A stretch of 64,000 bases of DNA from Octopus vulgaris. Its lineage: Eukaryota. The notes below the pieces were generated by a model. That model was not told the DNA's origin and made no database searches. It was given only the letters and a program-made list of their open reading frames with translations. This document shows, piece after piece, positions 53,831 to 54,991 of this stretch; position 1 is the stretch's first letter, and the number at the start of each line of letters is the position of its first letter. The DNA lies in assembly GCA_951406725.2 (NCBI GenBank), contig OX597834.1, positions 7,998,001 to 8,062,000 of the forward strand, read 5' to 3'. The translations under genes and the position numbers were made by a program.

Positions 53831-53993
53831 GTGACGTAGTTTTGCCATTTCAATATGGCTAACCCTAAGGGTGGATGCTACTGTAGTTTTTAGCCCCAGG
53901 AGGACACACTCCCCAGCTGGCCATAGACACACTTTCTGTGTCCTGTCAGTATTTGCAAAGGGAAGTCATCCTTCCCGTCTTCAACTTATGATA

Positions 53994-54038
53994 CACACGG
54001 ACTCGAGTTTCGAGGTATTGACCTCTCGTCAGCGTGTG
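53994..54038 (-). ncRNA. Type I hammerhead ribozyme, copy 1
   Basis: Exact reverse complement of 54213-54257. Confidence 0.9.
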
Positions 54039-54212
54039 ACAATCATAGTTGTCGCCGAGAATTAGATTTCCTTCACAAATACTTATACTTTTTCCAGCGT
54101 CCACTGTCGCTGATATTGAAAAAGTGAAATCCAACAATGATAAATATCAATGTGAGTTTTGTGAAGTAACTTTTGTGAAGGAAATCTAATTCTCGGCGAC
54201 AACTATGATTGT

Positions 54213-54257
54213 CACACGCTGACGAGAGGTCAATACCTCGAAACTCGAGTCCGTGTG
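54213..54257 (+). ncRNA. Type I hammerhead ribozyme, copy 2
   Basis: CACACG-CTGACGA-GAGGT-caat-ACCTC-GAAA-CTCGAG-TC-CGTGTG. Predicted cleavage after C54251. Confidence 0.93.
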
Positions 54258-54565
54258 TATCATAAGTTGAAGACGGGAAGGATGACTTCCCTTTGCAAAT
54301 ACTGACAGGACACAGAAAGTGTGTCTATGGCCAGCTGGAGGAGTGTGTCCTCCTGGGGGTAAAAACTACAGTAGCATCCACCCTTAGGGGTTAGCCATAT
54401 TGAAATGGCAAAAATACGTCACGTTGTGTTACCGCTACTGTATATAACTCACTTTGATATTTATCATTGTTGGATTTCACTTTTTCAATATCAGCGACAG
54501 TGGACGCTGGAAAAAGTATAAGTATTTGTGAAGGAAATCTAATTCTCGGCGACAACTATGATTGT

Positions 54566-54610
54566 CACACGCTGACGAGAGGTCAATACCTCGAAACTCG
54601 AGTCCGTGTG
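54566..54610 (+). ncRNA. Type I hammerhead ribozyme, copy 3
   Basis: Identical to copy 2. Predicted cleavage after C54604. Confidence 0.93.
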
Positions 54611-54991
54611 TATCATAAGTTGAAGACGAGAAGGATTACTTCCCTTTGCAAATACTGACAGGACACAGAAAGTGTGTCTATGGCCAGCTGGAGGAGTGTG
54701 TCCTCCTGGGGCTAAAAACTACAGTAGCATCCACCCTTAGGGGTTAGCCATATTGAAATGGCAAAAATACGTCACGTTGTGTTACCGCTACTGTATATAA
54801 CTCACATTGATATTTATCATTATATATATATATATATACATATAAACATATATATATATATATGTATATATACATGTATATATGTATATATTTAAACATA
54901 ATAAATATGGTAATAATAAATTATTATTACCAGTGGCCTAGCGCAAAAAAAAAACGAATTAGTCATTAGACTATATTATTATTCATATAGA

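Follow-up and report, generated by a model that had tools for sequence, protein, structure and literature searches.

Non-LTR retrozymes of Metazoa have been described in coral, mussel (~350-390 nt) and axolotl (331/353 nt), and the authors, in the portions of PMC7229834 that deal with animal elements, propose RNA circles as their templates and Penelope-like elements (PLEs) as their helpers. A PLE origin is also argued for non-LTR retrozymes from vertebrates, in a study whose sampling includes no mollusc (bioRxiv 10.64898/2026.07.22.740005). PLEs themselves favour TA and form partial tandems in which one copy is inverted and 5'-truncated and one end bears a tail of 30-40 bp, as set out in parts of PMC8557442, and a purified PLE enzyme nicks and extends both strands, with two internal RNA start sites bounding the tail (PMC11167929). 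The published retrozyme life cycle, with its circular template and PLE helper, rests on co-occurrence and on similarity to the PLE terminal repeat (pLTR).

We analysed a 64,000-nt stretch of the Octopus vulgaris genome (the window; contig OX597834.1), in which an earlier note had read a 353-nt repeat array. The period is as the note gave it, but the element is not a plain tandem array; it consists of two head-to-head arms between (TA)n runs, and the 3' ends of both arms point outward into these runs (Table 1). The near identity of the copies also holds, at 98-99%, although it is strict only in the ribozymes, since the direct copies show 4 differences over 297 nt. A short tandem non-coding unit of 150-450 bp is a retrozyme feature, and the 353-nt period agrees with it. 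The longest ATG-initiated ORFs in the unit encode 38 aa on the plus strand and 25 aa on the minus strand, so that the note was right to see no convincing ORF. Elsewhere in the window, a MITE-like 135-nt inverted repeat with a 7-nt loop (54980-55256) lies between the retrozyme and the neighbouring PLE. A 215-nt tandem repeat of ~3.5 copies (26201-27030) bears a degenerate minimal hammerhead-like motif that resembles the 3' terminus of a different PLE family, present at locus L097, and is possibly a pLTR-derived non-autonomous element.

Table 1. Features of the retrozyme insertion, in window coordinates; S and T are the two fixed 3' ends.
Feature	Coordinates	Strand	Basis
Left (TA)n run, likely target	53670..53830	.	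TA next to 115/124 fixed 3' ends in 85 loci
Inverted arm, unit 331-353 then 1-307, ends at short site S without tail	53831..54158	-	
Type I hammerhead motif, predicted cleavage after 54000	53994..54038	-	core match and Rfam
13-nt filler at head-to-head joint, partial repeat of the direct arm's first bases	54159..54171	.	
Direct arm, 650 nt = 1.84 units, unit 57-353 then 1-353, ends at tail site T	54172..54821	+	
Type I hammerhead motif, predicted cleavage after 54251	54213..54257	+	core match and Rfam
Predicted cleavage-to-cleavage monomer, 353 nt, strongly self-paired	54252..54604	+	folding
Type I hammerhead motif, predicted cleavage after 54604	54566..54610	+	core match and Rfam
Conserved helix 54719-54728 / 54787-54795 and hairpins round site S (54775); candidate recognition element for the helper enzyme	54719..54795	+	
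46-nt tail between fixed 3' ends S and T	54776..54821	+	
Right (TA)n run, likely target	54822..54891	.	

The three hammerhead cores are identical, as the note had stated, and start at +54219, +54572 and -54032. All three match the Rfam Hammerhead_1 model (RF00163) across its whole length with 32.2 bits (E=2e-5), just below the gathering score of 34, and a scan of the window at the gathering threshold gave no match. At a relaxed Rfam threshold, miRNA matches appeared that we rejected as a product of the inverted arms and the TA runs. The architecture claimed for the motif was recovered in full: a 6-bp stem I with an extension, a 5-bp stem II, a palindromic stem III, ACTCGAGT, and GTC sites at 54251 and 54604, spaced 353 nt apart, together with a third, minus-strand site at 54000. 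A short palindromic stem III favours dimeric hammerhead cleavage, according to the part of PMC4209133 on this point. Folded as a monomer, the hammerhead reaches -8.7 kcal/mol, whereas an inactive fold reaches -14.5 kcal/mol; this preference of the lone motif is expected if the ribozyme is dimer-dependent, and is also a caution. The 353-nt monomer is more stable than its shuffles (linear z=-6.15, with 0 of 100 shuffles equally stable; computed circular z=-5.7) and thus shares the self-paired monomer of retrozymes. Pol III A and B boxes were found in the unit only with one mismatch each and in an unconvincing order.

In the genome the 33-nt core has 439 exact matches, as compared to 0 for the reversed control, and a search of the 2.8-Gb genome with the unit returned 1,982 candidates; full-length matches among the best 40 of these, which were scored, are 93-100% identical to it. 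Of the 439 exact cores, 98 sit on the three largest contigs, grouped into 59 loci; scaled up to the whole genome, this gives an estimate of roughly 260 loci. The locus set used below was drawn from 112 records, including all 59 exact-core loci, and contains 85 distinct loci after 27 duplicates were dropped. Selection of these loci by an exact core or high identity inflates the apparent conservation of the core and the apparent fidelity of the junction as far as the cleavage site. More than half of the sampled unit words are also present in sequencing runs under seven organism labels, and contigs from four runs span the unit and cross the cleavage junction, strand, ends and level not being readable from contigs. 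One closed contig of 383 nt (353+30) in run X5 could derive equally from a circle or from tandem DNA. Searching metagenome contigs with a degenerate hammerhead pattern gave no match.

A looser hammerhead pattern matched the genome 3,386 times (control, 0), and among the first 100 of these, 93 are centred on a palindrome, with five kinds of palindrome represented; a sixth sister family has 123 matches. In at least six sister families, each having a stem III palindrome of its own, compensatory changes preserve the hammerhead fold, and those inspected are all 350-360-nt non-coding relatives with ends as in the window unit. The single-hit CCCGGG family had been suspected as a parent and was rejected as an older non-coding sister. 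In an alignment of nine natural units, 63 named pairs are paired in 96.4% of cells and 19 pairs are doubly changed. The pairing score beats all 500 shuffles and all slid controls, in a test where the 63-pair structure was partly derived from the same alignment and the sequences are related. This points to selection on the RNA structure of the unit. The computed energy of stem III self-pairing is -7 to -15 kcal/mol, as compared to +0.3 to -6.8 across families. The CCATGG-centre family, the commonest among the first 100 of the 3,386 matches, has the core CCGACGA and a stem II that starts with a U-U mismatch, and it includes a two-armed array of 9+3 units (G000:C1:31009474-31013493). More distant TA-associated hammerhead families with other stem III palindromes were seen at L059:2166-2402 and L191:15-180.

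The manner of insertion is highly regular. In the sense of the ribozyme, the 3' ends occupy two fixed positions, S (unit 307-310) and T (unit 352-356), which are separated by 46-49 nt. Two-armed loci combine S with T in 44 of 49 cases, the other five having one irregular end, and neither S+S nor T+T occurs; the one-armed loci (36/85) end at S in 27 cases, at T in five and elsewhere in four. TA adjoins 115 of the 124 S and T ends in the 85 loci, and target duplications of ~12-13 bp were found, where the flanks are readable, at four of 16 loci inspected (L213, L101, L005 and L223), in keeping with the dispersed copies, target duplications of more than 4 bp and lack of an LTR that characterise retrozymes. 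The exact end junction tracks the subfamily letter at unit position 309, which hints that one or two bases may pair with the target. Head-to-head joints mostly show an overlap of 0-10 nt, and neither a recurrent joint nor an inherited 5' flank was found among the 49 two-armed loci. The two fixed ends with their tail, the inverted arms and the TA targets indicate that the unit bears the insertion signature of PLEs. Together with the 12-13 bp duplications, they bear out the note's proposal of mobilisation in trans by a PLE enzyme, and we conclude with high confidence that the window repeat is a PLE-mobilised, non-autonomous hammerhead element.

Candidate helpers, with intact frames of 753-784 aa, are present in this genome. 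The neighbour of the retrozyme at 55262-56527 (+) is a 5'-truncated copy of an abundant young PLE, N1 (GIY-YIG, E=1.7e-4), whose family yielded 18,441 candidates; the best 150 of these scored at 99-100%, many with frames of 753 aa, and an RT domain is present. Full N1 copies carry a 367-aa frame without a Pfam match upstream of the 753-aa RT-endonuclease frame. Such PLEs are described as single-ORF elements, and the two-frame layout of N1 is therefore unusual. The autonomous families have two ends and TA flanks like the unit, with tails of 47-48 nt in N1, ~37 nt in N2 and ~38 nt in N4; tail length and short end motifs weakly suggest N1 as the best-fitting candidate helper. Its CxxxxCxxC motif, by the relevant part of PMC8557442, points to a PLE of putative Neptune type. 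The 3' end of N1 (56346-56386, +) contains a minimal hammerhead-like motif, read by eye, with a U3-A8 core and an ACCGGT palindrome, and N2 and N3 have similar motifs. Autonomous N2 also occurs as four head-to-tail copies with a period of ~4.4 kb (G000:C9:10672230-10685924), a tandem logic at the length of the full element.

A rival reading is that the unit is only the pLTR of an unsampled autonomous PLE, the arrays being truncated insertions or later expansions at the DNA level. PLE-derived retrozymes have been reported from Xenopus (bioRxiv 10.64898/2026.07.22.740005), and PLE families may have been missed here, as only the best 40-150 candidates were scored per search. A unit serving as PLE terminal repeat had been set beforehand as the observation that would speak against an independent retrozyme; it was seen at 0 of 85 distinct loci and in 0 of 105 PLE locus records, where retrozyme-profile matches occur only at separate nested insertions. 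The three partial profile hits are TA-flanked insertions of this kind and not pLTRs. None of the 85 loci runs on into an ORF, and upstream of the hammerhead the arms enter the previous unit; in a tblastn comparison covering 204 retrozyme records, no ORF occupied the position expected beside a pLTR. Parent searches with the N1 and N2 endonucleases, PF01541 and an old family recovered no unit-like pLTR among the best 40-150 candidates scored. The unit shares no sequence with the sampled helpers N1, N2 and N4, the neighbouring PLE was rejected as parent (best similarity to the unit, E=0.1-0.3), and sampled Neptune pLTRs bear a different, minimal hammerhead-like motif. The unit is therefore not the pLTR remnant of any sampled family. 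A pLTR-like core pair 3.25 kb apart at L093 proved to be a local duplication with satellite DNA in between, and an inverted pair of a sister family 6.4 kb apart at L143 encloses an unrelated LINE-like ORF. At L095 and L206 a PLE fragment is joined directly to the unit, as an unsampled parent would allow, but these joins lack pLTR geometry, both elements target TA, and the joins may be nested insertions with deletion. L095 (G000:C17:47707001-47716000), where a truncated N2 arm, tail included, meets a retrozyme arm head to head, looks like one insertion from two RNAs, a possible reading beside deletion after nesting, as the retrozyme end is irregular. DNA-level expansion would also leave inverted arms with identical private variants unexplained, and we consider this whole explanation highly improbable.

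A separate question is which form of the RNA is copied. Arms reach six units, the longest measuring 2,122 nt, and 46 of 135 cross two to six cleavage sites. Near the cleavage site, two 5' ends were observed as compared to 5.4 expected, and no error peak was found at the junction (1, 2 and 3 of 191). Copies diverge by 0.73% inside an arm, by 0.94% from one arm to the opposite one and by 1.74% from locus to locus. Rare variants are present in every copy of a locus 30 times (17 of them across both arms), in part of the copies nine times and in a single copy 181 times; thirteen are present throughout loci of three to six copies. Both arms and all units nearly always represent one subfamily variant, though several coexist, and variant sharing could partly result from gene conversion after insertion. 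The combination of arms that cross the cleavage site with one repeated variant favours a circular template, and a monomer circle is somewhat more likely than not to be the main one. About six loci, namely L004, L074, L094, L213, L228 and the window (unit position 338), contain ordered mixtures of variants, for which one monomer circle is insufficient without template switches, multimeric circles or later conversion. A further point against the circle is that eight of nine predicted Xenopus retrozyme dimers gave no cleavage in vitro (bioRxiv 10.64898/2026.07.22.740005).

Those mixtures, which at L094 are in register between the arms, would suit a template consisting of the uncleaved linear multimer transcribed from an array, with the same element and helper but the hammerhead acting in some other step or circles arising as a side product. 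Uncleaved RNA was the main PLE substrate in vitro, in work with a Poseidon PLE in which the hammerhead was dispensable (PMC11167929); local structures would fold identically in multimers. We nevertheless find a linear multimer unlikely, because the thirteen all-copy rare variants need a recent single-monomer bottleneck, inheritance of a joint or 5' flank is absent among the 49 two-armed loci, and copying of array from array should shorten it in each round, yet the arms attain the lengths given above. Arrays might also be built from cleaved linear monomers if the enzyme, on reaching the 5' end of a monomer, jumped to a 3' end, either that of the same molecule or that of a different one. Switches between RNAs do occur, as the subfamily variant changes within one arm of L228, but the cleavage junction has no excess of 5' ends or of errors, and jumping between monomers fits poorly with arms and units that nearly always share a single variant while several coexist; this makes such a template very unlikely.

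Returning to the circular template, we consider it probable that the family is a non-autonomous retrozyme whose 353-nt unit RNA is likely cut by itself, probably circularised, and likely copied into (TA)n in trans by a Neptune-type PLE enzyme. Transcription would run through an array, and two hammerheads would then pair through their 8-nt palindrome and cleave, as covariation and known dimeric hammerheads suggest; the monomer would be ligated as in other retrozymes. The PLE endonuclease would nick both strands ~12-13 bp apart, a distance taken from the duplications observed at four loci. Reverse transcription would be primed at S by one nick and, where the second nick is used, at T, which lies 46-49 nt to the 3' side; the two ends are observed and the priming deduced. 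Each enzyme would pass the cleavage junction, for up to six units as seen in arm lengths, and the two cDNAs would finally be joined head to head, with the short overlaps observed at most joints. More tentatively, a two-armed insertion may be the fossil of two PLE enzymes rolling on one 353-nt RNA circle from two fixed starts, one primed per DNA strand. A folded tail domain, rather than sequence shared with the helper, may recruit the enzyme, and the stem III palindromes, of which there are at least six, may act as an identity code by which hammerheads pair and cut only within their own family.

The octopus insertions themselves carry the PLE tail signature and, since the unit is short and repeated, each of them records what its template looked like. 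The unit is a natural minimal substrate of 353 nt with mapped start sites for the question of whether PLE reverse transcriptase rolls on circles, and it bears as well on the origin of the tandem and inverted structures typical of PLEs. The family had been thought undescribed; no account of it, nor of the two-end signature in a retrozyme, was found in the openly accessible literature that was searched, while the class and its link to PLEs are already published (parts of PMC7229834; bioRxiv 10.64898/2026.07.22.740005).

The element shows every testable feature of non-LTR retrozymes listed in the relevant portions of PMC7229834. With the metazoan retrozymes described there it shares a short non-coding tandem unit, a canonical type I hammerhead with a short palindromic stem III, a GC content below 50%, a self-paired predicted circle and a PLE as proposed helper. 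Two fixed ends with a tail, inverted arms and TA targeting are present here and do not appear in the portions of that paper describing metazoan retrozymes. Those portions demonstrate circles and cleavage, whereas for the octopus unit both are predicted. As in Xenopus and other vertebrates, the element is non-autonomous, co-occurs with PLEs and mostly has few units per locus. However, 24 of 57 vertebrate families match known transposable elements, for the most part PLE termini, and the authors invoke local expansion of DNA (bioRxiv 10.64898/2026.07.22.740005), whereas the octopus unit matches no sampled pLTR and its evidence for PLEs is the anatomy of its insertions. In that anatomy it resembles EN+ PLEs (Neptune; Poseidon PAc), which have partial tandems, an inverted 5'-truncated copy, a tail between two RT starts, TA or AT-rich targets and a hammerhead near the end (parts of PMC8557442; PMC11167929). 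It differs from them in lacking an ORF, in a tail of 46-49 nt as compared to the 30-40 given in parts of PMC8557442, and in a hammerhead that is canonical where theirs, by the part of PMC4209133 concerned, is minimal. Chlamys MRC1, as portrayed in parts of PMC8557442, is likewise a non-coding PLE dependant with multicopy head-to-tail insertions. Elements of that type resemble their helpers at the 3' end, unlike the octopus unit, which resembles no sampled helper, and their clade is said in those parts to be without canonical hammerheads, of which the octopus unit has one. The family belongs to a known class, the non-LTR retrozymes, and provides unusually clear genomic evidence for mobilisation of that class by PLEs.
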